A DNA stretch of 64,000 nt. Origin: Escherichia coli (GTDB lineage: Bacteria; Pseudomonadota; Gammaproteobacteria; Enterobacterales; Enterobacteriaceae). The DNA lies in assembly GCF_017348835.2 (NCBI RefSeq), contig NZ_CP071375.1. The stretch is one strand, 5' to 3'. The first letter of the stretch is position 1. Each line of letters opens with the position of its first letter. A program made the position numbers and the translations under genes. Below are positions 4,238-19,590 of the stretch, piece after piece. The notes under the pieces are model-generated. The model saw nothing but the letters and a program-made list of their open reading frames with translations. It was not told where the DNA came from and ran no database searches.

Positions 4238-5566
4238 ATGGAAAACGCTAAAATGAACTCGCTCATCGCCCAGTATCCGTTGGTAAAGGATCTGGTTGCT
4301 CTTAAAGAAACCACCTGGTTTAATCCTGGCACGACCTCATTGGCTGAAGGTTTACCTTATGTTGGCCTGACCGAACAGGATGTTCAGGACGCCCATGCGC
4401 GCTTATCCCGTTTTGCACCCTATCTGACAAAAGCATTTCCTGAAACTGCTGCCACTGGGGGGATTATTGAATCAGAACTGGTTGCCATTCCGGCTATGCA
4501 AAAACGGCTGGAAAAGGAATATCAACAACCGATCAGCGGGCAACTGTTACTGAAAAAAGATAGCCATTTGCCCATTTCCGGCTCCATAAAAGCACGCGGC
4601 GGGATTTATGAAGTCCTGGCACACGCAGAAAAACTGGCTCTGGAAGCGGGGTTGCTGACGCTTGATGATGACTACAGCAAACTGCTTTCTCCGGAGTTTA
4701 AACAGTTCTTTAGCCAATACAGCATTGCTGTGGGCTCAACCGGAAATCTGGGGTTATCAATCGGCATTATGAGCGCCCGCATTGGCTTTAAGGTGACAGT
4801 GCATATGTCTGCTGATGCCCGGGCATGGAAAAAAGCGAAACTGCGCAGCCATGGCGTTACGGTCGTGGAATATGAGCAAGATTATGGTGTTGCCGTCGAG
4901 GAAGGACGTAGAGCAGCGCAGTCTGACCCGAACTGTTTCTTTATTGATGACGAAAATTCCCGCACGTTGTTCCTTGGGTATTCCGTCGCTGGCCAGCGTC
5001 TTAAAGCGCAATTTGCCGAGCAAGGTCGTATTGTCGATGCTGATAACCCTCTGTTTGTCTATCTGCCGTGTGGTGTTGGCGGTGGTCCTGGTGGCGTCGC
5101 ATTCGGGCTTAAACTGGCGTTTGGCGATCATGTTCACTGCTTTTTTGCCGAACCAACGCACTCCCCTTGTATGCTGTTAGGCGTCCATACAGGATTACAC
5201 GATCAGATTTCTGTTCAGGATATTGGTATCGACAACCTTACCGCAGCGGATGGCCTTGCAGTTGGTCGCGCATCAGGCTTTGTCGGGCGGGCAATGGAGC
5301 GTCTACTGGATGGCTTCTATACCCTTAGCGATCAAACCATGTATAACATGCTTGGCTGGCTGGCGCAGGAAGAAGGCATTCGTCTTGAACCTTCGGCACT
5401 GGCGGGTATGGCCGGGCCTCAGCGCGTGTGCGCATCAGTAAGTTACCAACAGATGCACGGTTGCAGCGCAGAACAACTGCGTAATGCCACTCATCTGGTG
5501 TGGGCGACGGGAGGTGGAATGGTGCCGGAAGAAGAGATGGAGCAATATCTGGCAAAAGGCCGCTAA
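4238..5566 (+). CDS. dsdA: D-serine dehydratase (PLP-dependent)
   Basis: 442-aa ORF starting [15 protein letters not shown] with a PLP-lysine region (SGSIKARGG); matches DsdA length and sequence. Confidence 0.95.
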
Positions 5567-5673
5567 TTAATTTTCAATTCAGCATCGCCATCCTTTCCCT
5601 GGATGAGCGATGCTGCCGATGGCGCAGACTTAAGATCCCCGGTCTTACCCGCTATAACCCCCTGCTTTTACCA

Positions 5674-7212
5674 TCACCCAACGCCTTTCGCTGTAAACGG
5701 CGGTTTCGCAAACCAAACCAAAACCGTAAGTAAGATAAAAGCAATAGCCGCCATACGGAAAATCTCATTTGCAGAAATAGAAAGTGACTGCTGGGTTATT
5801 TCATTATTAATTTCATTAAGAACTCCTGAAAGCGAACCATAGTATTTATCCATAATTTGTGACGATGAATTAAACACGGGGTTAAATTGATCGATGGTTG
5901 CTGTCAACTGACTATGGTGTAACGATTCGCGTCGTCCCCACAGCGTCATTGTCAACGACGTACCAACTGATCCTGACAAGGTACGAAAAAAATTACTCAT
6001 ACTCGAGGCATTGGCAAATTTATTATCTGGCAACCCTGAAAACGAAATCGTTGTTAAGGGTAAAAAGAAACAGGCAACGGCGAATCCCTGGAAAAACTGT
6101 GGCAAAATGATGCCTGTAAAATCAATCGTTGGCATAAATGTCACAGAACGCCAGTAATAGCAAACCGCATACATCAAAAAACTAAATGTCACTAACAACC
6201 GCATGTCTATTTTGTTGCCATAACGTCCTATCAAAGGTGAAATTAATAGTGGCATGATGCCGATGGGCGCATAAGCAAGCCCAGCCCAAATCGCATTATA
6301 CCCCATTGTTTCCTGGAGGAACTGCGGCATAAGGACTATCGCTCCAGAGTAAAATAAATACGCGCATGTGATACTCACAATACCAATGGTGAAATTACGG
6401 GACTTAAACAAACTGAGATCAAGAATCGGGTTCTCTGAGGTTGACTCCCAAATGACTAAAGAGATCAGAGAAATAACTGATACTACTGTTAATATTATTA
6501 TTGTACTCGAGTTGAACCAATCCAGATCGCGCCCTTTATCAAGCATAATTTGCAAGCCACCAACACCAAGCACTAACAGGGTCAGTCCTGGTAGATTCAT
6601 TTTGACCGGTGAAGTCTCAGTTTCTCTTCCTTTAAGTAAGGTTAAGCATAATGTCAGGACGATAACCCCCATAGGGACATTGATTAAAAATATCCAACCC
6701 CAGCTAAAGTTATCACAAATATAACCGCCCAATATCGGCCCACATATCGGAGCGATAATCACGGTCATTGACCATAATGCCAGAGCAAATGTTCTTTTTT
6801 CTGGTGGATAATTCCTTAATAATAAACTCTGTGACAGTGGAATTAACGGCCCTGCCATTAACCCCTGAACGACTCTAAAAAATATCAGCACATCAAGATT
6901 GGTCGATAAACTACACATTAAGGAAGACAGCGAAAAAAAAGTGACTGAAAGTAAAAATAACCTTAATTCGCCTATTCTTTGTGCCAGCCTGCCAGTAACA
7001 GGGATCGCAATGGCATTTGCTACGCCAAACGAGGTGATAACCCAGGTACCTTCGTCTGTTGATGCTCCCAGAAAGCCAGATATTGTCGGTATTGCGACGT
7101 TAGAAATAGTGGAATCCAACATTTGCATAAATGTCGCTAATGACAATGCAATAGTGACGCACCATAACGTCCCACCGGTTAATGGTGCCGGAGTTGATTT
7201 AGTGATTGCCAT
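5674..7212 (-). CDS. emrY: MFS multidrug efflux permease (EmrB paralogue)
   Basis: 512-aa polytopic membrane ORF; operon partner of emrK, with stop/start overlap at 7212. Confidence 0.93.
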   Translation of the reverse strand: MAITKSTPAPLTGGTLWCVTIALSLATFMQMLDSTISNVAIPTISGFLGASTDEGTWVITSFGVANAIAIPVTGRLAQRIGELRLFLLSVTFFSLSSLMCSLSTNLDVLIFFRVVQGLMAGPLIPLSQSLLLRNYPPEKRTFALALWSMTVIIAPICGPILGGYICDNFSWGWIFLINVPMGVIVLTLCLTLLKGRETETSPVKMNLPGLTLLVLGVGGLQIMLDKGRDLDWFNSSTIIILTVVSVISLISLVIWESTSENPILDLSLFKSRNFTIGIVSITCAYLFYSGAIVLMPQFLQETMGYNAIWAGLAYAPIGIMPLLISPLIGRYGNKIDMRLLVTFSFLMYAVCYYWRSVTFMPTIDFTGIILPQFFQGFAVACFFLPLTTISFSGLPDNKFANASSMSNFFRTLSGSVGTSLTMTLWGRRESLHHSQLTATIDQFNPVFNSSSQIMDKYYGSLSGVLNEINNEITQQSLSISANEIFRMAAIAFILLTVLVWFAKPPFTAKGVG

Positions 7213-8375
7213 TAAAGTTGTCCATTATGCGAAATAATGTTGCTAATTTCTTTTTCTATCGGACTGGTATCGATAACTAAAGCCTTACTGGTATAAGCAG
7301 GCATGGAGGTCACGGTTGAAGCCAGATCAGGCATCTCAGCAATGTCTTCGTTCCTGGTATCAATAGTTGCAGTCATCGATAAACCAATGCGCAAGGGGTG
7401 TTCCATGAGTTCTTTTGGATCCAGAGAAACTTCAACCGGTACACGCTGAACGATTTTGATCCAGTTCCCTGTCGCATTTTGTGCAGGTAATAAGGAGAAC
7501 GCATTGCCGGTTCCCATATTGATCCCTGTCACCCGACCATGAAACACAACATTTTCACCATAAAGATCGCTGATAATATTGACCGATTGACCAATCCGTA
7601 CATCCGTGAGTTGTGTTTCTTTAAAGTTGGCATTAACCCACATTTGACGTGCCGGTACGACAGCCATTAACGATTGTCCGGGGCTCACTGTTTCGCCGAC
7701 CTGAACACTTCTCTGGGCAATATAGCCGGTAACCGGACTCTTAATATCCGTACGTTTAAGCGCCAACCAGGCTTCTTTAGTTGCATCCGCCGCTTCAACG
7801 ACTTGTGGCTGACGGTTTAATGGTGTGTTCATTACTAAAGCTTTATTCGCTTTATAAGCCTGGATAGCGGCATTCAATGCCGCTTTGCTACTTATTAACG
7901 TATCTTTGGTATGCTCCAGCGTTTCTTTTGAAATAACCCCCTGCTTCGCTAACGGCACTCGACGGTTATAATCTTCTAAAGATTGTTGATACTGAATACG
8001 CGCTGAAGCGACTTCGGCACTGTATTGTTTATCCTGTAAGTATAGTTTATTCGTTTGCCGAACAATATTTGCCAGATTATTTTTAGCTTTATTGAGTGCG
8101 ATAGTGGCATCAGTTTTATCCAGTGAAACTAAAATGTCACCTTGTCGAACGTAGTTCGTATCTTTATGATTAACTACAGTGACACTACCTGAGACTTGTG
8201 CAGAAATTGGATCTGCATTCCCCGTGACATAGGCGTCATCTGTACTAATCATGTCTTCTAATTCCATTGACCAATAGGCATAGGCACCTGAAAACGCAAT
8301 AAATAAAACTACCGCCAATAAAGAAAAGTATTTTCTTCTGTTAGAATGTTTTTTATTTGAATTAATCTGTTCCAC
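7212..8375 (-). CDS. emrK: Multidrug efflux membrane fusion protein (EmrA paralogue)
   Basis: 387-aa ORF with an N-terminal TM anchor and HlyD-like coiled-coil/lipoyl region; divergent from evgA. Confidence 0.93.
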   Translation of the reverse strand: MEQINSNKKHSNRRKYFSLLAVVLFIAFSGAYAYWSMELEDMISTDDAYVTGNADPISAQVSGSVTVVNHKDTNYVRQGDILVSLDKTDATIALNKAKNNLANIVRQTNKLYLQDKQYSAEVASARIQYQQSLEDYNRRVPLAKQGVISKETLEHTKDTLISSKAALNAAIQAYKANKALVMNTPLNRQPQVVEAADATKEAWLALKRTDIKSPVTGYIAQRSVQVGETVSPGQSLMAVVPARQMWVNANFKETQLTDVRIGQSVNIISDLYGENVVFHGRVTGINMGTGNAFSLLPAQNATGNWIKIVQRVPVEVSLDPKELMEHPLRIGLSMTATIDTRNEDIAEMPDLASTVTSMPAYTSKALVIDTSPIEKEISNIISHNGQL

Positions 8376-8548
8376 TTTTATCTCTCATTTCGCATAGATG
8401 AAATTTATGAATTGAATGAAAAGAGTATTCATTCTTCATATCAAACACAGTGCATGTGTTGCACATTATCCCAGGAACGTTGGAGGCCTAATTTAAATGA
8501 GGTGCAAAAAAAACAACAGAGGACTAAACCGTGGCTTTTGCAATACAA

Positions 8549-8566
8549 TTCTTACGCCTGTAGGAT
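8549..8566. promoter_or_regulatory. EvgA-box-like inverted repeat in the emrK-evgA divergent region (TTCTTACGCCTGTAGGAT)
   Basis: Matches the EvgA consensus (18-bp inverted repeat of TTCYTACA) at 7/8 plus 7/8 positions. Confidence 0.5.
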
Positions 8567-8790
8567 TAGTGAGAAGACTTATAGTGCTAATGTGAAACTA
8601 TAAATCATCGGTACAATCCCTGATTTTATTGTTGACATTTCATATATGCCGACTATTTATATGGTATACTTGTCGAATTATCTTAAAGGAAGCTCAAATT
8701 TTCTTATTTTTATTGAGAAAATGAGATGATGCCTTATGTCTGTATTACTACAGGGAGAAGGGAGATGCTTCATTGCAAAGGGAATAATCT

Positions 8791-9405
8791 ATGAACGCAA
8801 TAATTATTGATGACCATCCTCTTGCTATCGCAGCAATTCGTAATTTATTGATCAAAAACGATATTGAAATCTTAGCAGAGTTGACTGAAGGCGGAAGTGC
8901 CGTTCAGCGGGTGGAAACACTTAAGCCTGATATCGTCATCATTGATGTCGATATCCCCGGAGTTAACGGTATCCAGGTGTTAGAAACGCTGAGGAAGCGC
9001 CAATATAGCGGAATTATTATTATCGTCTCCGCTAAAAATGACCATTTTTACGGGAAACATTGTGCTGATGCTGGCGCTAATGGTTTCGTGAGTAAAAAAG
9101 AAGGCATGAACAATATCATTGCGGCTATTGAAGCTGCAAAAAATGGCTACTGCTATTTCCCCTTCTCTCTCAACCGGTTTGTTGGAAGTTTAACGTCCGA
9201 CCAGCAAAAACTCGACTCCTTATCGAAACAAGAAATTAGTGTCATGCGCTATATTCTTGATGGCAAGGATAATAATGACATTGCTGAAAAAATGTTCATC
9301 AGCAACAAAACTGTCAGCACTTATAAAAGTCGCCTGATGGAAAAATTAGAATGTAAATCACTGATGGATCTTTACACATTCGCACAACGTAACAAAATCG
9401 GCTAA
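8791..9405 (+). CDS. evgA: Response regulator (NarL/FixJ family), acid and drug resistance regulator
   Basis: 204-aa ORF with receiver domain and C-terminal LuxR-type HTH; followed by evgS 4 nt downstream. Confidence 0.95.
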   Translation: MNAIIIDDHPLAIAAIRNLLIKNDIEILAELTEGGSAVQRVETLKPDIVIIDVDIPGVNGIQVLETLRKRQYSGIIIIVSAKNDHFYGKHCADAGANGFVSKKEGMNNIIAAIEAAKNGYCYFPFSLNRFVGSLTSDQQKLDSLSKQEISVMRYILDGKDNNDIAEKMFISNKTVSTYKSRLMEKLECKSLMDLYTFAQRNKIG

Positions 9406-9409
9406 CCAC

Positions 9410-12400
9410 ATGAAGTTTTTACCCTATATTTTTCTTCTCTGTTGTGGTCTTTGGTCGACCATAAGTTTCGCAGACGAAGATTACATCGAATATCGTGGCA
9501 TCAGTAGTAACAACCGTGTCACACTTGATCCACTACGTCTGAGCAACAAGGAATTACGTTGGTTAGCGAGCAAAAAAAATCTTGTGATTGCAGTACACAA
9601 GTCCCAAACGGCTACGTTGTTGCATACCGATTCGCAGCAACGGGTTCGTGGTATTAATGCTGATTATTTAAATCTTTTAAAAAGAGCGTTAAATATCAAA
9701 CTAACACTCCGGGAATACGCCGATCATCAAAAAGCAATGGACGCGCTGGAAGAAGGTGAAGTCGATATAGTGTTATCACATTTAGTTGCTTCGCCGCCTC
9801 TTAATGATGACATTGCTGCAACCAAACCACTGATAATTACCTTTCCGGCGCTCGTCACCACCCTTCACGATTCAATGCGACCGCTTACCTCATCAAAACC
9901 AGTAAATATTGCTCGAGTAGCAAATTATCCCCCTGACGAGGTAATTCATCAATCATTTCCAAAAGCAACAATTATCTCTTTTACAAATTTATATCAGGCA
10001 TTAGCATCCGTCTCAGCCGGACAGAATGATTACTTTATTGGTAGTAACATCATTACCAGCAGTATGATTTCCCGCTATTTCACTCACTCCTTAAATGTAG
10101 TGAAATATTATAACTCACCGCGTCAATATAATTTTTTCTTGACCAGAAAAGAATCTGTCGTTCTTAATGAAGTACTCAATCGATTTGTTGATGCTTTGAC
10201 AAATGAAGTTCGCTATGAAGTATCACAAAATTGGCTTGATACAGGAAACCTGGCCTTTCTGAACAAACCATTAGAACTCACTGAACATGAAAAACAATGG
10301 ATTAAGCAGCATCCCGATTTAAAGGTGCTGGAAAATCCTTACTCCCCTCCCTATTCTATGACGGATGAAAATGGCTCGGTTCGGGGCGTTATGGGGGATA
10401 TTCTTAATATTATTACTTTGCAAACAGGTTTAAATTTTTCTCCGATCACCGTTTCACACAATATCCATGCTGGAACACAGCTGAATCCCGGCGGATGGGA
10501 TATATTACCCGGTGCTATTTATAGTGAAGATAGAGAAAATAATGTTTTATTTGCTGAAGCCTTCATAACAACGCCTTACGTTTTTGTCATGCAAAAAGCG
10601 CCTGACAGTGAACAAACATTAAAAAAAGGAATGAAAGTTGCCATTCCATATTATTATGAGCTGCATTCGCAATTAAAAGAGATGTATCCGGAGGTAGAGT
10701 GGATAAAAGTCGATAACGCCAGCGCTGCATTTCACAAGGTCAAGGAAGGTGAACTTGATGCTCTGGTCGCGACACAGTTAAATTCGCGTTACATGATCGA
10801 CCATTACTATCCTAATGAACTGTATCATTTTCTTATTCCCGGCGTTCCGAATGCATCGCTTTCGTTCGCTTTTCCTCGCGGAGAACCGGAACTTAAGGAT
10901 ATTATTAATAAAGCACTGAATGCAATCCCCCCAAGCGAAGTTCTGCGCCTGACCGAAAAATGGATTAAAATGCCCAATGTGACCATTGACACATGGGACC
11001 TCTATAGCGAGCAATTTTATATTGTTACGACATTATCCGTTTTATTAGTTGGCAGTAGCCTTTTATGGGGATTCTACCTGTTACGCTCAGTTCGTCGTCG
11101 TAAAGTCATTCAGGGTGATTTAGAAAACCAAATATCATTCCGGAAAGCGCTCTCGGACTCCTTACCGAATCCAACTTATGTTGTAAACTGGCAAGGTAAT
11201 GTCATTAGTCACAATAGTGCATTTGAACATTATTTCACTGCTGATTACTACAAAAATGCAATGTTACCATTAGAAAACAGTGACTCACCCTTTAAAGATG
11301 TTTTTTCTAATGCGCATGAAGTCACAGCAGAAACGAAAGAAAATCGAACAATATACACACAGGTATTTGAAATTGATAATGGCATCGAGAAAAGATGCAT
11401 TAATCACTGGCATACATTATGCAATCTGCCAGCCAGCGATCATGCTGTTTATATTTGTGGTTGGCAAGATATTACCGAGACGCGTGATTTAATTCATGCA
11501 CTCGAAGTAGAGAGAAATAAAGCGATCAATGCAACTGTCGCAAAAAGTCAGTTTCTGGCAACAATGAGTCACGAAATAAGAACACCAATAAGCTCCATTA
11601 TGGGCTTCCTGGAACTTCTGTCGGGTTCTGGTCTTAGCAAGGAGCAACGGGTGGAGGCGATTTCACTTGCCTACACCACCGGACAATCACTCCTCGGCTT
11701 AATTGGTGAAATCCTTGATGTCGACAAAATTGAATCGGGTAACTATCAACTTCAACCACAATGGGTCGATATCCCTACTTTAGTCCAGAACACTTGTTAC
11801 TCTTTCGGTGCGATTGCTGCAAGCAAATCGATCGCATTAAGTTGCAGCAGTACGTTTCCTGAACATTACCTGGTTAAGATCGACCCTCAGGCGTTTAAGC
11901 AGGTCTTATCAAATTTACTGAGTAATGCTCTCAAATTTACCACCGAGGGGGCAGTAAAAATTACGACCTCCCTGGTTCACATTGATGACAACCACGCTGT
12001 AATCAAAATGACGATTATGGATTCTGGAAGTGGATTATCGCAGGAAGAACAACAACAACTGTTTAAACGCTATAGCCAAACAAGTGCAGGTCGTCAGCAA
12101 ACAGGTTCTGGTTTAGGCTTAATGATCTGCAAAGAATTAATTAAAAACATGCAGGGTGATTTGTCATTAGAAAGTCATCCAGGCATAGGAACAACATTTA
12201 CGATCACAATCCCGGTAGAAATTATCCAACAAGTGGCGACTGTCGAGGCAAAAGCAGAACAACCCATCACACTACCTGAAAAGTTGAGCATATTAATCGC
12301 GGATGATCATCCGACCAACAGGCTATTACTCAAACGCCAGCTAAATCTATTAGGATATGATGTTGATGAAGCCACTGATGGTGTGCAAGCGCTACACAAA

Positions 12401-13003
12401 GTCAGTATGCAACATTATGATCTGCTTATTACTGACGTTAATATGCCGAATATGGATGGTTTTGAGTTGACTCGCAAACTCCGTGAGCAAAATTCTTCCT
12501 TACCCATCTGGGGGCTTACAGCCAACGCACAGGCTAACGAACGTGAAAAAGGGTTAAATTGCGGCATGAACTTATGTTTGTTCAAACCGTTGACCCTGGA
12601 TGTACTGAAAACACATTTAAGTCAGTTACACCAGGTTGCGCATATTGCACCTCAGTATCGCCACCTTGATATCGAAGCCCTGAAAAATAATACGGCGAAC
12701 GATCTACAACTGATGCAGGAGATTCTCATGACTTTCCAGCATGAAACGCATAAAGATCTACCCGCTGCGTTTCATGCACTAGAAGCTGGCGATAACAGAA
12801 CTTTCCATCAATGTATTCATCGCATCCACGGTGCGGCTAACATCCTGAATTTGCAAAAGTTGATTAATATTAGCCATCAGTTAGAAATAACACCTGTTTC
12901 AGATGACAGTAAGCCTGAAATTCTTCAGTTGCTGAACTCTGTAAAAGAACACATTGCAGAGCTGGACCAGGAGATTGCTGTTTTCTGTCAACAAAATAAC
13001 TAA
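9410..13003 (+). CDS. evgS: Hybrid sensor histidine kinase (periplasmic binding domains, HisKA-HATPase, receiver, HPt)
   Basis: 1197-aa ORF with a signal sequence, two periplasmic solute-binding-like domains, MSHEIRTP H-box, receiver and HPt domains. Confidence 0.95.
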   Translation: MKFLPYIFLLCCGLWSTISFADEDYIEYRGISSNNRVTLDPLRLSNKELRWLASKKNLVIAVHKSQTATLLHTDSQQRVRGINADYLNLLKRALNIKLTLREYADHQKAMDALEEGEVDIVLSHLVASPPLNDDIAATKPLIITFPALVTTLHDSMRPLTSSKPVNIARVANYPPDEVIHQSFPKATIISFTNLYQALASVSAGQNDYFIGSNIITSSMISRYFTHSLNVVKYYNSPRQYNFFLTRKESVVLNEVLNRFVDALTNEVRYEVSQNWLDTGNLAFLNKPLELTEHEKQWIKQHPDLKVLENPYSPPYSMTDENGSVRGVMGDILNIITLQTGLNFSPITVSHNIHAGTQLNPGGWDILPGAIYSEDRENNVLFAEAFITTPYVFVMQKAPDSEQTLKKGMKVAIPYYYELHSQLKEMYPEVEWIKVDNASAAFHKVKEGELDALVATQLNSRYMIDHYYPNELYHFLIPGVPNASLSFAFPRGEPELKDIINKALNAIPPSEVLRLTEKWIKMPNVTIDTWDLYSEQFYIVTTLSVLLVGSSLLWGFYLLRSVRRRKVIQGDLENQISFRKALSDSLPNPTYVVNWQGNVISHNSAFEHYFTADYYKNAMLPLENSDSPFKDVFSNAHEVTAETKENRTIYTQVFEIDNGIEKRCINHWHTLCNLPASDHAVYICGWQDITETRDLIHALEVERNKAINATVAKSQFLATMSHEIRTPISSIMGFLELLSGSGLSKEQRVEAISLAYTTGQSLLGLIGEILDVDKIESGNYQLQPQWVDIPTLVQNTCYSFGAIAASKSIALSCSSTFPEHYLVKIDPQAFKQVLSNLLSNALKFTTEGAVKITTSLVHIDDNHAVIKMTIMDSGSGLSQEEQQQLFKRYSQTSAGRQQTGSGLGLMICKELIKNMQGDLSLESHPGIGTTFTITIPVEIIQQVATVEAKAEQPITLPEKLSILIADDHPTNRLLLKRQLNLLGYDVDEATDGVQALHKVSMQHYDLLITDVNMPNMDGFELTRKLREQNSSLPIWGLTANAQANEREKGLNCGMNLCLFKPLTLDVLKTHLSQLHQVAHIAPQYRHLDIEALKNNTANDLQLMQEILMTFQHETHKDLPAAFHALEAGDNRTFHQCIHRIHGAANILNLQKLINISHQLEITPVSDDSKPEILQLLNSVKEHIAELDQEIAVFCQQNN

Positions 13004-13058: not shown

Positions 13059-14204
13059 TTATGATGAGAACTCCTGGCGAATTTGTTCCCCATGCTGGTC
13101 GAGCATTGCCGCTCCCGGCATAACATGCGGGTCCGCGCAGCCGCTGATTTTTATCGGATTACCTGGCATCATTATTCCTCCGGCTTCAATCAACATATTT
13201 CTCGCCTGAGTTTGTGGCAAATTAATGGCCTCAGCCACACTTAATAACGGCGCGACGGGCACACCAACTTCATGTATTTTGGCTAACCAAACTTCAGCTG
13301 CCTGCGTTTTTAACGTCCGCTCAATATATTGTTTAAGAATAGCCTGGTTTTGTACGCGTAAAATATTGCTGCTAAATCTGGGATCATTAACCAGTTCCGT
13401 AAGCTCCAGTGCCTGGCATAACGCAGAGAAAAGCTTGTCATTACCACAACAAATCGTAATCGGCTTATCCTGAGTATCGAAAACATCAAAAGGTGCCATG
13501 TAGGGGTGGCGATTTCCCAAACGTTGTGGTGACTTCCCAGTCGCGATATATGCCATCAGCCCGTGCTCCAGAAAACTCAGAGTAGCATCAAACATCGCTA
13601 TATCGACATGCGCCCCTCTCTGGCTCTTTTCGCGGCCATAAAGTGCACTCACTATTCCGCTGAATAAATAGACACCGCCGCATAGATCCGCAAGAGAGGT
13701 ACCAACACGCACTGGCGGAGCATCAGGGTACCCTGTTTCCATCATTATCCCGCTCATTGCCTGAATGATGGTATCGTAGGCAGGAGCATCTTTTAGCGGA
13801 CCGGTATGTCCGAAACCTGACGATGAAGCATATATGAGGCGCGGGTTGATTTCTTGTAACCTTTCCCATGAAAACCCTAGTTTTTCCATTGTACCTGGGC
13901 GAAAATTCTCAGCTAATACATCAGCTTGTTTAAGCATATTTATAAATATACTTTTATCGTGATCATTCTTTAAATCAAGAACCACACTCTCTTTGCCATG
14001 ATTAATAAAACTGTAATAGAGTGACTGTCCATCCACATAGGGACCAAATGTGCGGGTATCATCACCATGGCCCGGCGGCTCAACTTTAATTACCCTTGCG
14101 CCCATATTACAAAGAAGTTGAGTTCCGAAAGGTCCATTAAGGACATGTGTCATATCGATAACTAATAAGCCTTCAAACGGCCCTTTGCTTTCATTATTTG
14201 TCAT
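13059..14204 (-). CDS. yfdE: Acetyl-CoA:oxalate CoA-transferase (family III CoA-transferase)
   Basis: ORF 13059-14243 trimmed to the internal ATG (MTNNESKGPFEGLLVIDMTHVLNGP), 381 aa; CaiB/BaiF family signature. Confidence 0.9.
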   Translation of the reverse strand: MTNNESKGPFEGLLVIDMTHVLNGPFGTQLLCNMGARVIKVEPPGHGDDTRTFGPYVDGQSLYYSFINHGKESVVLDLKNDHDKSIFINMLKQADVLAENFRPGTMEKLGFSWERLQEINPRLIYASSSGFGHTGPLKDAPAYDTIIQAMSGIMMETGYPDAPPVRVGTSLADLCGGVYLFSGIVSALYGREKSQRGAHVDIAMFDATLSFLEHGLMAYIATGKSPQRLGNRHPYMAPFDVFDTQDKPITICCGNDKLFSALCQALELTELVNDPRFSSNILRVQNQAILKQYIERTLKTQAAEVWLAKIHEVGVPVAPLLSVAEAINLPQTQARNMLIEAGGIMMPGNPIKISGCADPHVMPGAAMLDQHGEQIRQEFSS

Positions 14205-14277
14205 TTGCTTATGCCTTGAAAAAAGCCGAAGGTGAAAAGACACTTCGGCATTTATGTAAAATCAATAACATGATTAA

Positions 14278-15222
14278 TTATGAAACCAGTCGACTGACAT
14301 AAATCCACAAGGGAGCCGTGACGACAAAGCCCAGTACGCTCACAGCCAATGACGCTGTACCAGTGCGGGTGTAGACATTAAACCGGCTGGCAATAATGAT
14401 TCCGGAGAATGCCGGCGGTAATGCGCCTGCCAGTACCATCATCTGCAAATGTTCGCGGTTCAAATGACATGCCATACCAACGAGAAGCAGCGCCAGTGGC
14501 ATCAGAATCAGCTTCAGGAAGGTGTTATAAGCAATTTCGGCACTGAACTCGAATTTATGTGCAGCCAGAGTCAACCCCGCAGCGAATACCGCTACCCCTG
14601 AGTTAGCCTTCGCAATCAGATTAAAGGTTGGGTCCCATGCTGCCGGAATTTTTACCCCAACCAACACCAGGATCGTTGCCAGAACAGGTGCCCATACAAC
14701 TGGCTCCTTTGCCGCAGAAATTAATGCGCTCAGATTACTATTCTTCTTACCATCCGCTCCTGAGGAAGGATTCAGCAAATACAGACCAATAGGAATAGTA
14801 ATTGCGTTAACAATAATAGAAATAATTGCTACCACTAAACCTGTTGATACGGAATCACCATAAATAGGATCGAGAACTGCAAACCCCAGGAATCCAATGG
14901 TAGGTGAACCTGCAATTAATGCACATACAGCTGCTTCTGCATGAGTACGTTTAAAAAATTTGTAGCAACCGAACCAGGAGAAAAAGAAACATCCGACAAT
15001 AACCACAAGTGATACAAGGGTCAGACGAGTGTCCGCAAAAATCATTTCCCTGTTTGCCCGGGTAATAGATACAAATAGAGCCGCAGGAAGCGCGTAGTTT
15101 AATACCAGTTTATTAAATGCCCGAGCTTGATCTTCTGAAAATGTTTCTCGTCTGCCGCTAAAATAACCCAACAGCATGATTACGATAATAGGCAATAAAT
15201 CGCCAATAAAAAATGTTAGCAT
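14278..15222 (-). CDS. yfdV: AEC-family transporter
   Basis: 314-aa polytopic membrane ORF located between yfdE and oxc. Confidence 0.9.
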
Positions 15223-15291
15223 AATAGTATTTCCGATAAGGGTCCCCTCACCATCGCATAATGAGTTGGCAAGAGGAGACGATGTCAGTAT

Positions 15292-16986
15292 TTAATTACC
15301 AGCGACTTGTTTTGGGTTCAGTTTGGTAATATGGCCACTTTCAGTTCCTGCTGCAGGGTCGATGACCATATTAATAATGGTCGGTTTGCGCGACTGAATA
15401 CCGGTGGTTAAAGCATGACGAAGTTCATCTGTCGTGGTGACGTTATAGCCAACGCCACGAAACGCATCCATTAATTTGTCATACCTTGCATGGTGCAACA
15501 GATCTGTTGGTGATGGTGCACCAGCGCCACTGAGATCAACACCGTCTCCTCTGTAGATGCCGCCATTATTAAAAATAACGATCGTTACCGGCAGGTTATA
15601 TCGACAAATCGTTTCAATTTCCATCCCACTGAAACCAAAAGCACTATCACCTTCAATGGCGACAACCGGAGAACCAGAAGTCACGCTAGCACCGATGGCA
15701 TAGCCCATACCGATGCCCATGACACCCCAGGTACCACAATCCAGACGACGACGTGGTTTATACATATCAATAATATTTCGTGCATTATCCAGGGTATTTG
15801 CCCCTTCATTAACTAAATAAATATCCTGGTTCTCGCGCAATACATCGCGCACAGCACTTAATGCATTAAAGTAATTTAATGGTTGGGTATCTGTACTTAA
15901 TTTTTCATGCATTTTTTGTGCATTTTGCTGCTTGTGGATATTTAAAATATCGCGCCATACCAGTGGAGTCGTAAATGTGTTTTGTTTCAGTTCTGCCAGC
16001 ATACCTTGCATACTGGATGCAATATCACCAACGACTGGCACAGCAATGGGGCGGTTGCTGTCAATTTCCTGCGGTTCAATATCCAGTTGAATAAACTGTG
16101 TATCTGCCGCCCATCCTTTTTTACCGTGTGCCAGTAACCAATTCAGTCGTGCACCAACAAGCATGACAACGTCAGCATTTGCCAGGGCAAACGAACGCGC
16201 AGCTGCCGCAGAAAGTGGATGCGTATCTTCGAGGATCCCTTTCGCCATAGACATTGGCAGGAATGGAATCTGGGCACTTTCAATAAATTCACGAAGCTGT
16301 TCATCAGCTTGTGAATACGCCGCGCCTTTGCCAAGGATAACTAATGGTCGTTCAGCTTTTGCTAAAAGCGAAATTGCGCTAGCGACTGACTTCGGGCATG
16401 GCAATAATGCTGGCGACGGATTTTCAACTTTTACAATCGTGGTTAACGCTTCGTCTTTTTCCATCGTCGCGGCCAGGACATTTGCTGGCAAATCAAGATA
16501 AACTCCGCCAGGGCGACCCGATATCGAGACCCGGATAGCGCGTGCCAATGCAATGCCAAGATCCTGCGGCTGATTAACGCGAAATGCTGCTTTGGCATAC
16601 GGTTTTGCCGCATTCATTTGGTCCAGCTCTTCATAATCACCTTGCTGTAGGTCGACGATCGCGCGGTCGCTGGAGCCGCTAATCATGATCATCGGAAAAC
16701 CATTTACCGTTGCGTTGGCCAATGCGGTCAAACCATTGAGGAATCCTGGCGCAGACACTGTCAGGCAGATCCCTGGTTTTTGGGTAAGAAAACCGCTTGC
16801 CGCAGCGGCATAGCCTGCCGACTGCTCATGACGAAAACCAATATAACGAATGCCTTCCGCCTGGGCATGGCGCGCCATATCCGTCACAGGAATACCTACA
16901 ACACCATAAATAGTGTCAATATTATTCTGTTTTAATGCTTCAACGATGATATGCATACCATCTGTCATTTGAAGTTGATCTGACAT
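15292..16986 (-). CDS. oxc: Oxalyl-CoA decarboxylase (ThDP-dependent)
   Basis: 564-aa ORF with ThDP-enzyme architecture. Confidence 0.93.
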   Translation of the reverse strand: MSDQLQMTDGMHIIVEALKQNNIDTIYGVVGIPVTDMARHAQAEGIRYIGFRHEQSAGYAAAASGFLTQKPGICLTVSAPGFLNGLTALANATVNGFPMIMISGSSDRAIVDLQQGDYEELDQMNAAKPYAKAAFRVNQPQDLGIALARAIRVSISGRPGGVYLDLPANVLAATMEKDEALTTIVKVENPSPALLPCPKSVASAISLLAKAERPLVILGKGAAYSQADEQLREFIESAQIPFLPMSMAKGILEDTHPLSAAAARSFALANADVVMLVGARLNWLLAHGKKGWAADTQFIQLDIEPQEIDSNRPIAVPVVGDIASSMQGMLAELKQNTFTTPLVWRDILNIHKQQNAQKMHEKLSTDTQPLNYFNALSAVRDVLRENQDIYLVNEGANTLDNARNIIDMYKPRRRLDCGTWGVMGIGMGYAIGASVTSGSPVVAIEGDSAFGFSGMEIETICRYNLPVTIVIFNNGGIYRGDGVDLSGAGAPSPTDLLHHARYDKLMDAFRGVGYNVTTTDELRHALTTGIQSRKPTIINMVIDPAAGTESGHITKLNPKQVAGN

Positions 16987-17039
16987 GATTAATAACCTCG
17001 AAATTTTTATAAATTGGGAGCCAGAAGCCCCCGTTAATA

Positions 17040-18290
17040 TCAGATGGCGTGGTTTTGCTTCATTGCAGCAATTTCATCGTCGCTATAACCCAGCTCCTGC
17101 AATACAGCAGCGGTATGTTCACCTAATAGCGGCGCAGCTTTAATATCTGGCGTAAAGGCAGAGAATTTCATTGGACAACCAACTGTCAGATATTTTCCAC
17201 GCAACGGTTGTTCCACTTCGACAACACTGCCACTTTGGCGTAAAGAGGGATCAAGTGAAATTTCTTTCATACTTAAAACCGGTGCACAAGGAATATCAAA
17301 CTGAGTCAAATAGGCCACCGCTTCATGTTTATCAATAGTGACAGTGTATTTTTCGATTTCAGCAAAAATATCGAAAATATGTGGCTGTCGGGCATGGGCT
17401 GTACTGTATGCCGGATCGGTAATCCAATCTGGTTTGCCGATGGCTTTACAGGTGTTTTCCCAGTTTTGCTCCTGAATAGTGAAATAAATATAGGCGTTAG
17501 GATCTGTTTCCCAGCCTTTACATTTCAGGATCCAGCCAGGCTGACCGCCACCACCCGCATTACCACCGCGGGGAACTGCATCACCAAATGTGCCATTCGG
17601 ATACTGCGGGTATTCTTCCAGATAACCCAATTTATCGAGACGCTGCTGGTCGCGTAATTTCACGCGGCAAAGGTTCAATACGGCATCCTGCATTGACATG
17701 GTGACTCGTTGCCCACGCCCCGTTTTTTCTCGATGCAGCAAAGCAGCAAGTAAACCGATCAGTAAATGCATTCCGGTGTTGCTGTCACCCAACGCTGCAG
17801 CGCTTACCAGCGGCGGACCGTCCCAAAAACCCGTAGTAGATGCCGCGCCACCCGCTGCCTGAGCAACGTTTTCATAGGCTTTTACATTCACATAAGGCGA
17901 ACACTCATCAAACCCTTTGATCGAACCAAAAATCAGACGTGGATTGATTTCTTGAATATGCTCCCAAGTGAAGCCCATATGATCAATGGCCCCTGGATGA
18001 AAGTTCTCGACTAAGATATCAGCTTCGCGGATCAGCTTTTCCATTACCTCTTTGCCTTCCGCTGTTTTGGTATTTAATTCAATAGAACGTTTGTTACTGT
18101 TAAGAATGGTGAAGTAAAGCGCATCGATATCAGGAATATCTCGCAGCTGGTGACGCGTTACGTCACCAACGCCGGGGCGTTCAATTTTAATGACGTCAGC
18201 GCCAAACCAGGCCAGCATTTGAGTACAAGATGGGCCAGATTGCACACCGGTGAAATCGAGAACTTTAATTCCTTGAAGTGGAGTTGACAT
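17040..18290 (-). CDS. frc: Formyl-CoA:oxalate CoA-transferase
   Basis: 416-aa ORF of family III CoA-transferase (paralogue of yfdE), starting [20 protein letters not shown]. Confidence 0.93.
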
Positions 18291-18540: not shown

Positions 18541-18558
18541 TTCTTACAACTGTAAGAA
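18541..18558. promoter_or_regulatory. Perfect EvgA-box-like palindrome TTCTTACAACTGTAAGAA upstream of frc
   Basis: 18-bp perfect inverted repeat matching TTCYTACA-N2-TGTARGAA, about 250 bp upstream of the frc start in the yfdX-frc intergenic region. Confidence 0.55.
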
Positions 18559-18801: not shown

Positions 18802-19437
18802 TTAGTTCACAAACAGTGCTTCGCTATCGACGATGATTCCATCTTCCGCACCTTTAAGCGCCAGGTTTGCCTCGTAGTATTGCTTTTTATCAAGCAGTTT
18901 CTGCGCATCAGCAAGTGCATTACGAGTCTGTTTAAGCGGCATCAGATATTGGTTTTCCATTACGCCAACACCGGCCAGGCGAAGCTCTTCCATTGCGCCC
19001 TTTTTATCCCCTTTCGCCATTTTTTCATTGGCAATTTTTATCGCGGCTTCTTTTTCGGGTGTTGCTACATAACTCTCAGAAATTCCGACAGATGCATTAA
19101 TGACAATATATTGGTCATCATTGAGATTGGTCTTTTTACCTGGCTTAGCGAACTTTGCCCATTCGGTACTGTCATCTGACAACAAAGCGGAAGCTTCATT
19201 GGTCAGTTCTTTTGCCTTTTCCGGATCGCCATGAAACAGAGCCAGGCGCGCTACCTGCACGTCACGCATCGCATATAAACCTTGTTCAGAGATACGCTCT
19301 GCTGCCGCTGCCGTTTTCTGGGTTTGCTGAACTTGCTGAGTTTGCTTTTGTGCCGCTACCGGAGCATTATCAGCAGCCCATACAGTTGAAGATGCCAGAA
19401 TTGCTGTGACCATCGTGGCCATAATTAAACGTTTCAT
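18802..19437 (-). CDS. yfdX: YfdX-family periplasmic protein (EvgA regulon)
   Basis: 211-aa ORF with a signal peptide ([21 protein letters not shown]). Confidence 0.9.
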
Positions 19438-19533: not shown

Positions 19534-19590
19534 TATCTTACAGTTGTAGTTATTATCGCAAGAAGTATTTTAGTCTTACAATTGTAGGAA
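19534..19590. promoter_or_regulatory. Two adjacent EvgA-box-like inverted repeats upstream of yfdX (ATCTTACAGTTGTAGTTA and GTCTTACAATTGTAGGAA)
   Basis: Both match the TTCYTACA-N2-TGTARGAA pattern (13-15 of 16 positions) and lie 100-150 bp upstream of the yfdX start. Confidence 0.5.

Follow-up and report, generated by a model that had tools for sequence, protein, structure and literature searches.

An EvgA box in the divergent emrK-evgA region of Escherichia coli as the probable operator of emrKY

The 18-bp imperfect inverted repeat TTCTTACGCCTGTAGGAT at positions 8549-8566 is very probably the EvgA operator of the emrK-evgA region, from which emrKY is activated. The sequence match, its significance, the conservation and the geometry shared with other EvgA promoters come from the present analysis; that emrK depends on EvgA and that EvgA directly binds the promoter region of emrKY is known from the literature. 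The initial annotation had described the box as consistent with a single site through which EvgA activates emrKY and also regulates its own operon. The first part stands, as emrK is EvgA-dependent and the orientation and geometry of the box agree with activation. The second part does not fit the distance, the orientation and the flat response of an evgA reporter, and we consider any measurable autoregulatory effect on evgAS to be rather unlikely.

The window, i.e. the whole 64-kb stretch of DNA analysed here, is E. coli chromosome. Positions 8300-8850 are matched in 5398 of 5426 complete E. coli genomes, where emrK and evgA are annotated. The emrK/emrY and evgA/evgS gene pairs are divergent, and the intergenic region between them (8376-8790) is 415 bp long with a GC content of 34%. 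The gene map agrees with the initial placement of the box between the divergent emrKY and evgAS operons. In K-12 MG1655 the emrK-evgA intergenic region has an equal length, and the MG1655 coordinate equals the window coordinate plus 2,474,964. The genes in the surroundings are the following.

5674-7212, minus strand: emrY, MFS permease of 512 aa (ORF map, annotated relative, Pfam)
7212-8375, minus strand: emrK, membrane-fusion adaptor of the HlyD type, 387 aa, GTG start (ORF map, K-12 annotation, Pfam)
8791-9405, plus strand: evgA, ATG at 8791, receiver domain (Response_reg) and LuxR/GerE helix-turn-helix (ORF map, annotated relative, Pfam)
9410-13003, plus strand: evgS, hybrid sensor kinase (ORF map and annotated relative)
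13059-18290, minus strand: yfdE-yfdV-oxc-frc (ORF map and annotated relative)
18802-19437, minus strand: yfdX (ORF map and annotated relative)

A 63-aa ORF at 8412-8603 overlaps the box. It was treated as spurious: it is unannotated in K-12, and there are indels across it in divergent lineages. In strain XH990 (L001, 4914-6076), which matches the window at 100% over a 551-bp intergenic segment, emrK is annotated as a frameshifted pseudogene; unlike the XH990 copy, the emrK ORF of the window is intact.

The box and its two halves, none of which is assigned to a strand, are located as follows.

8549-8566 (MG1655 2,483,513-2,483,530): EvgA box (motif match, matrix, identity to K-12)
8549-8556: emrK-proximal half-site TTCTTACG, reading CGTAAGAA toward emrK; the stronger half, with its outer bases complete
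8559-8566: emrK-distal half-site TGTAGGAT, which is ATCCTACA on the other strand

The consensus TTCYTACA-NN-TGTARGAA, taken from the EvgA literature as that of the EvgA box, was then re-derived empirically from five other sites. Compared with TTCYTACANNTGTARGAA, the box has two mismatches, a G at 8556 and a T at 8566, and agrees at 14 of the 16 specified positions. Both the location and the count of the initial annotation were therefore correct. The self-complementarity of the box is imperfect, with five of the eight arm positions complementary, i.e. the sequence resembles the family consensus and not itself. It lies upstream of emrK, 174 bp from the start codon. EvgA has Response_reg and GerE (LuxR HTH) domains, which fits the binding of a dimer to an inverted repeat. 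A full-text literature search for the box sequence and for the consensus strings gave nothing useful.

Further EvgA boxes were found in the window and, by a pattern search, in K-12.

18541-18558: EvgA box TTCTTACAACTGTAAGAA upstream of frc/yfdW, no mismatches, a perfect palindrome, 259 bp upstream of the frc/yfdW start
19535-19552: EvgA box proximal to yfdX, three mismatches
19573-19590: EvgA box distal to yfdX, one mismatch
6072-6089 and 8731-8748 of the K-12 record (L002): boxes upstream of safA (one mismatch) and ydeP (two mismatches)

The two yfdX boxes form a tandem pair, 38 bp apart from centre to centre, in the yfdX-ypdI divergent region. EvgA boxes at ydeP, safA/b1500-ydeO, yfdX and frc/yfdW were reportedly described by Masuda and Church in 2003 and by Itou and co-workers in 2009. 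The emrK box presumably belongs to the same known set through the work of Kato and co-workers in 2000, and we take K-12 to be the strain of that original study. Binding of EvgA to inverted repeats at yfdX and yfdWUVE has been published (PMC3720670).

The match to the consensus is not due to chance. Allowing at most two mismatches, the analytic expectation is 0.057 matches in 64 kb and 0.0004 for the 415 bp between emrK and evgA. With at most three mismatches there are four matches in the window against 0.54 expected, and none of 100 shuffled sequences reached four. All four are upstream of EvgA-regulon operons, namely emrK/evgA, frc and, with two boxes, yfdX. In addition, we used a leave-one-out position weight matrix trained solely on the five other EvgA boxes (frc, the two at yfdX, safA and ydeP). 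The site at 8549-8566 obtains 18.85 bits and is the top non-training site of the window, the runner-up having 9.49 bits. A score of 18.85 bits is attained in just 2% of random first-order Markov sequences of 64 kb. Scanned with both consensus and matrix, the emrK-evgA intergenic region holds no other full EvgA box. Extra EvgA half-sites were also sought between the box and each promoter; the 11 loose matches obtained, against 9.6 expected, amount to no enrichment.

The specified positions of the box are under evolutionary constraint. The box is identical in K-12 MG1655, and among 5417 E. coli records the 30-mer at 8541-8570 is identical in 4890 (90%), with one mismatch in 526 and two in a single record. 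Only a handful of the 527 variant records was inspected: in four sampled records with one mismatch, three alter the central N positions (CC to CA at 8558) and one alters 8547, outside the box. Six diverse E. coli sequences have 25 variable positions in the 415 bp, none of which falls in the 37 bp of 8534-8570. Two divergent lineages were added, L003, an "E. coli" species-level representative, and L004, which is labelled Yersinia vastinensis and has an EvgA of 94% identity. Across the resulting eight sequences, no invariant block of the intergenic region is longer than 8542-8555, AATACAATTCTTAC, which contains the emrK-proximal half-site. The box is TTCTTACACCTGTAGGAA in L003, a perfect match, and TTCTTACACGTGTAGGCA in L004, with one mismatch. 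Both lineages retain TTCTTAC.C.TGTAGG, whereas the flanks have diverged. The changes inside the box are limited to 8556 (toward the consensus), the central N positions and the outer positions 8565 and 8566 of the emrK-distal half.

L004 is NZ_CACVAF010000001.1, a 590-kb contig labelled Yersinia vastinensis IP38594, and its emrK-evgA locus could come from horizontal transfer or from a mislabelled record. The 398-bp contig L008 (NZ_JAEUAT010000078.1), from a Rhizobium cauense assembly, matches E. coli evgA with 100% identity and probably represents contamination. In an Enterobacter sp. MAG (L007, 1512-3615) an evgA-like gene with 68% identity is divergent from a HlyD-family efflux adaptor, and the short gap separating the two contains the box-like sequence TTCCTACGTCTGTAGTCC. 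This arrangement implies that the pairing of efflux adaptor and evgA, with a box in between, predates E. coli.

We then compared five promoters with their boxes oriented toward the target gene, emrK, frc and yfdX from the window and safA and ydeP from K-12. In all five the gene-proximal half is a complete (T/C)GTAAGA(A/T); in the distal half the two outer bases are degenerate. Each of the five also has a −10-like hexamer 53-54 nt past the end of the box: TAAATT at emrK, TATATT at safA, TAATTT at ydeP, TATTCT at frc and TATGAT at yfdX. Of the circular-shift controls, in which all offsets were searched as well, 0.15% have a higher summed −10 score than the one at this offset. The resulting p of about 0.0015 is optimistic, given that the promoters are only partly independent: in register, safA and ydeP share 61% identity, and frc also resembles yfdX. 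Over the 70 nt past the box, the emrK promoter has an in-register identity of 43% to safA and 40% to ydeP, compared with at most 37% in shifted registers. The emrK box is thus like the other E. coli EvgA boxes in its 18-bp TTCYTACA-N2-TGTARGAA pattern, in its stronger half being promoter-proximal and in the spacing to the −10-like hexamer. It differs from them in that its core is weakest at one position, the proximal half being CGTAAGAA instead of TGTAAGAA, and in being the only one of the set in a divergent region shared with the operon of the regulator itself.

The elements assigned to the emrK promoter are the following.

8490-8495, minus strand: predicted emrK −10 TAAATT, from the shared box-to-hexamer spacing
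8519-8525, minus strand: AGTCCTC element, 24-30 nt past the box, corresponding to about −42 to −36 in the predicted promoter

With this −10, the emrK transcription start is predicted at about 8483 (MG1655 about 2,483,447), the box centre at about −74.5, and the −35 would be poor. The predicted layout is that of an activator-dependent promoter. The orientation of the box and its distance to the core promoter are like those at the other EvgA-activated promoters, where the emrK start is a predicted one and the promoters are partly paralogous. The AGTCCTC element is in register with AGTCCTA at safA and AGTCTTA at ydeP, with TC columns at offsets 26-27; more speculatively, it may be a secondary EvgA half-site. 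A tentative generalisation, drawn from these alignments, is an oriented EvgA promoter module in which an asymmetric box at about −74.5 is followed by a GTCYTA-like element (about −41 to −36) and by a weak −35; the module would be kept in register at emrK, safA and ydeP and in spacing at frc and yfdX. If such a module exists, further EvgA dimers would load cooperatively toward the −35, as BvgA does, the action would be strictly unidirectional toward emrK, and evgAS would be effectively constitutive.

No emrK start site is present in the SMRT-Cappable-seq supplement (PMC6131387), as expected for uninduced cells. A simple sigma-70/terminator scan of 8250-8850 called neither the emrK nor the evgA promoter, as their −10 elements fail its rules. 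Its sole promoter call (minus strand, 8652-8623) is implausible and was rejected. The same scan returned a small terminator-like hairpin, GTGCAACACATGCAC followed by TGTGTTTGAT, at 8450-8464 on the minus strand, within the predicted 5' leader of emrK. The 61% in-register identity between safA and ydeP extends across the 70 nt downstream of their EvgA boxes, which suggests that these two promoter regions are a duplicated module.

The box lies upstream of a promoter that depends on EvgA and EvgS, the dependence itself being taken from published data (PMC6393483, PMC5706723, PMC4283999). According to a passage in PMC8174306 that cites Kato 2000, EvgA binds the emrKY promoter region directly. PMC5706723, also citing Kato 2000, calls the emrK promoter "directly regulated by EvgA" and uses it as a reporter of EvgS activity. 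Deletion of evgA or evgS in Shigella abolishes both the expression of an emrK-gfp fusion and the emrK mRNA (PMC6393483). In an evgS-constitutive mutant emrK is induced by log2 5.03 (about 33-fold) and emrY by 3.64 (PMC4283999 Table S4). The strong induction of emrK via EvgA is shared with other genes of the regulon, as the same table gives log2 values of 8.37 for frc, 6.97 for yfdX and 6.02 for ydeP.

We propose the following mechanism. When mild acid and alkali metals activate EvgS, a dimer of EvgA~P, a NarL/LuxR-type regulator, very probably binds the box as a high-affinity operator and switches on the emrKY promoter, which is otherwise silent and lies on the minus strand at a distance of about 75 bp. 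The box points toward emrK, with the better half-site promoter-proximal as at safA, ydeP, frc and yfdX. Activation from about −74.5 probably involves either upstream contacts with RNA polymerase or extra EvgA bound more weakly in the stretch from the box to the −35, in a BvgA-like manner.

EvgAS and BvgAS are homologous systems in which an unorthodox kinase is paired with a NarL/LuxR-type regulator. The BvgA heptads TTTCCTA have half-sites related to those of EvgA (TTCYTA). At fhaB-bvgAS of Bordetella, a far-upstream primary inverted repeat is located in a divergent region of about 400 bp between the target and the regulator operons, as at emrK-evgA. By analogy, the box may work like the primary BvgA site at fhaB, i.e. 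as a far-upstream inverted repeat for a NarL-family dimer. BvgA spreads cooperatively from its primary site toward the −35; unlike at fhaB, the secondary EvgA sites at emrK would consist of the candidate AGTCCTC element only. The bvgAS operon is clearly positively autoregulated, and in this respect evgAS differs, its promoter activity having no EvgS-dependent change in published data.

On the evgA side of the region, the elements are the following.

8632-8637, plus strand: evgA −35 TTGACA (consensus), read from the sequence; kept in K-12 and L003, TTGATA in L004
8662-8670, plus strand: evgA extended −10 TGgTATACT, read from the sequence; serves the downstream start site and lies 6-7 nt upstream of 8676/8677
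8665 and 8676, each +/-1, plus strand (MG1655 2483629 and 2483640): the two measured evgA transcription start sites (SMRT-Cappable-seq, PMC6131387 supplement)
8765-8794, plus strand: evgL, 9-aa leader ORF (MLHCKGNNL) overlapping the evgA ATG; K-12 annotation b4781

The annotated evgA 5'UTR begins at about window position 8667 (PMC11052181 Table S5), and the evgL start codon at +89 gives an evgA +1 at about 8677 (PMC11210196). The latter paper, in a passage citing Tanabe 1998, mentions σS and σ70 evgA promoters. The Cappable-seq supplement (PMC4782308) has zero entries near the locus.

Could the same box activate emrKY and also positively autoregulate evgAS? Such a shared, bidirectional operator appears doubtful to us, and the autoregulation claim is weak: three later data sets contradict it in magnitude, and the distance, the orientation and the promoter strength all speak against it. 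Measured from the two evgA start sites, the centre of the box lies at about −108 and −119, and no full box is nearer; this is far, yet not impossible with DNA bending or oligomerisation. Relative to evgA the box faces the opposite way compared with the five EvgA-activated promoters. With its consensus −35 and its extended −10, the evgA promoter looks activator-independent, and it is active without induction. A candidate for a downstream site, TTCTTA-N7-TGAGAA at 8701-8719 in the evgA leader, was rejected: the spacing is wrong, the CA/TG core is lacking and it is not conserved in L003 or L004.

In published reporter and array data, the evgAS promoter does not respond to activation of its own system. 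A pLUX-evgAp fusion, whose fragment may or may not include the box, gives 3.8-5.2 units under four constitutive EvgS alleles, compared with 4.0 ± 0.6 in the wild type, whereas the corresponding lux fusions rise from 0.0 to 6-43 for the safA promoter and from 0.0 to 10-91 for ydeP (PMC4283999 Table S3). Neither evgA nor evgS (b2369, b2370) is listed among the genes with more than 4-fold induction in the evgS-constitutive mutant (PMC4283999 Table S4), and the same authors describe the promoter of evgAS as "known not to be regulated by acid". Mild acid likewise gives no response of the evgA promoter in PMC11210196. In macrophages, Shigella induces emrK with evgA mRNA unchanged (PMC6393483).

Several observations nevertheless speak for a shared operator. 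EvgA "is reported to be autoregulatory" in a sentence of PMC11210196 that cites Tanabe 1998 and others. The intergenic region has no second full box, and the possibility that the pLUX-evgAp fragment lacks the box would leave room for an effect. Plasmid copies of evgAS flanked by IS1 lack emrK but keep the box within some 320 bp of upstream sequence. Five other Enterobacterales records (Klebsiella, Buttiauxella, Enterobacter, Hafnia) have their top matrix match at the locus upstream of the evgA homologue. There is no adjoining efflux gene in Buttiauxella (14.5 bits) or Hafnia (weak, 5-6 bits); the Klebsiella locus scores 14.5 bits. These evgA homologues of Hafnia, Klebsiella, Enterobacter and Buttiauxella have weak or half boxes of 5-14.5 bits, which are suggestive of autoregulation but not decisive. 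Finally, BvgA, the homologue of EvgA, autoregulates bvgAS from the fhaB-bvgA divergent region.

It is very improbable that the box belongs to another LuxR/NarL-family regulator, such as a UvrY/GacA-type protein, RcsB or GadE. The CTTAC/GTAAG half-site words do resemble those of UvrY/GacA and RcsB boxes. The UvrY/GacA box upstream of csrB-type sRNA genes is, like the EvgA box, an 18-bp palindrome with CTTACA/TGTAAG words for a NarL-family dimer. It differs in being TGTAAG-N6-CTTACA, with the half-sites in the opposite order, and in having an unrelated regulon. The present box has CTTAC-N4-GTAGG, and it is not of the UvrY/GacA or RcsB type, because both the order of the half-sites and their spacing differ. 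The identical arrangement is found at five other EvgA-regulon promoters, and EvgA is the sole regulator common to emrKY and ydeP in the EcoCyc entry as quoted in PMC8174306.

A chance resemblance with no regulatory role, for which one could invoke an AT-rich region where TTCTTA-like words are common and loose half-sites occur at background level, is effectively refuted by the low expectation in the intergenic region, the clear separation of the box from the rest of the window by the leave-one-out matrix, its invariance in E. coli, the retention of its core where the flanks diverged and the EvgA-dependence of emrK.

Assigning the box to EvgA as the operator of emrKY is not new in itself. The EvgA site at emrK is already known, because the box is identical to that of K-12 and EvgA binding at the emrKY promoter region was published in 2000. 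As a textbook-level operator in the best-studied bacterium, its confirmation changes little. The directional argument and the extended promoter module may be mildly new, although part of this is perhaps contained in Itou et al. 2009. In practice the site is of use as a positive control for a transcription factor site recognised from sequence alone; the consensus also finds the three other EvgA boxes of the window. A useful refinement is that geometry, orientation and reporter data together assign the box to emrKY, with no feedback loop on evgAS indicated. This bears on models of the EvgAS circuit, as models of auto-activating two-component systems sometimes include such a loop. The relevance of emrKY itself lies in bile-salt and drug efflux and in the survival of Shigella in macrophages.

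Two further features of the evgA side were observed. A strongly conserved palindrome, CTGTATTACTACAG, is located at 8740-8753, just upstream of evgL, and is probably an RNA hairpin in the evgA leader. The evgL reading frame is translationally coupled to evgA (PMC11210196) and is reported to be repressed by CsrA.

Copies of the evgAS region also occur outside the chromosome. On the 117-kb E. coli plasmid pCFSAN061763 (L084, NZ_CP042900.1) evgAS is found at 5180-10886 between IS1 copies. The IS1 junction corresponds to about window position 8470, so that emrK is lost while the EvgA box and the evgA promoter are kept. Among the complete E. coli genomes, about 20 plasmid places match this region.
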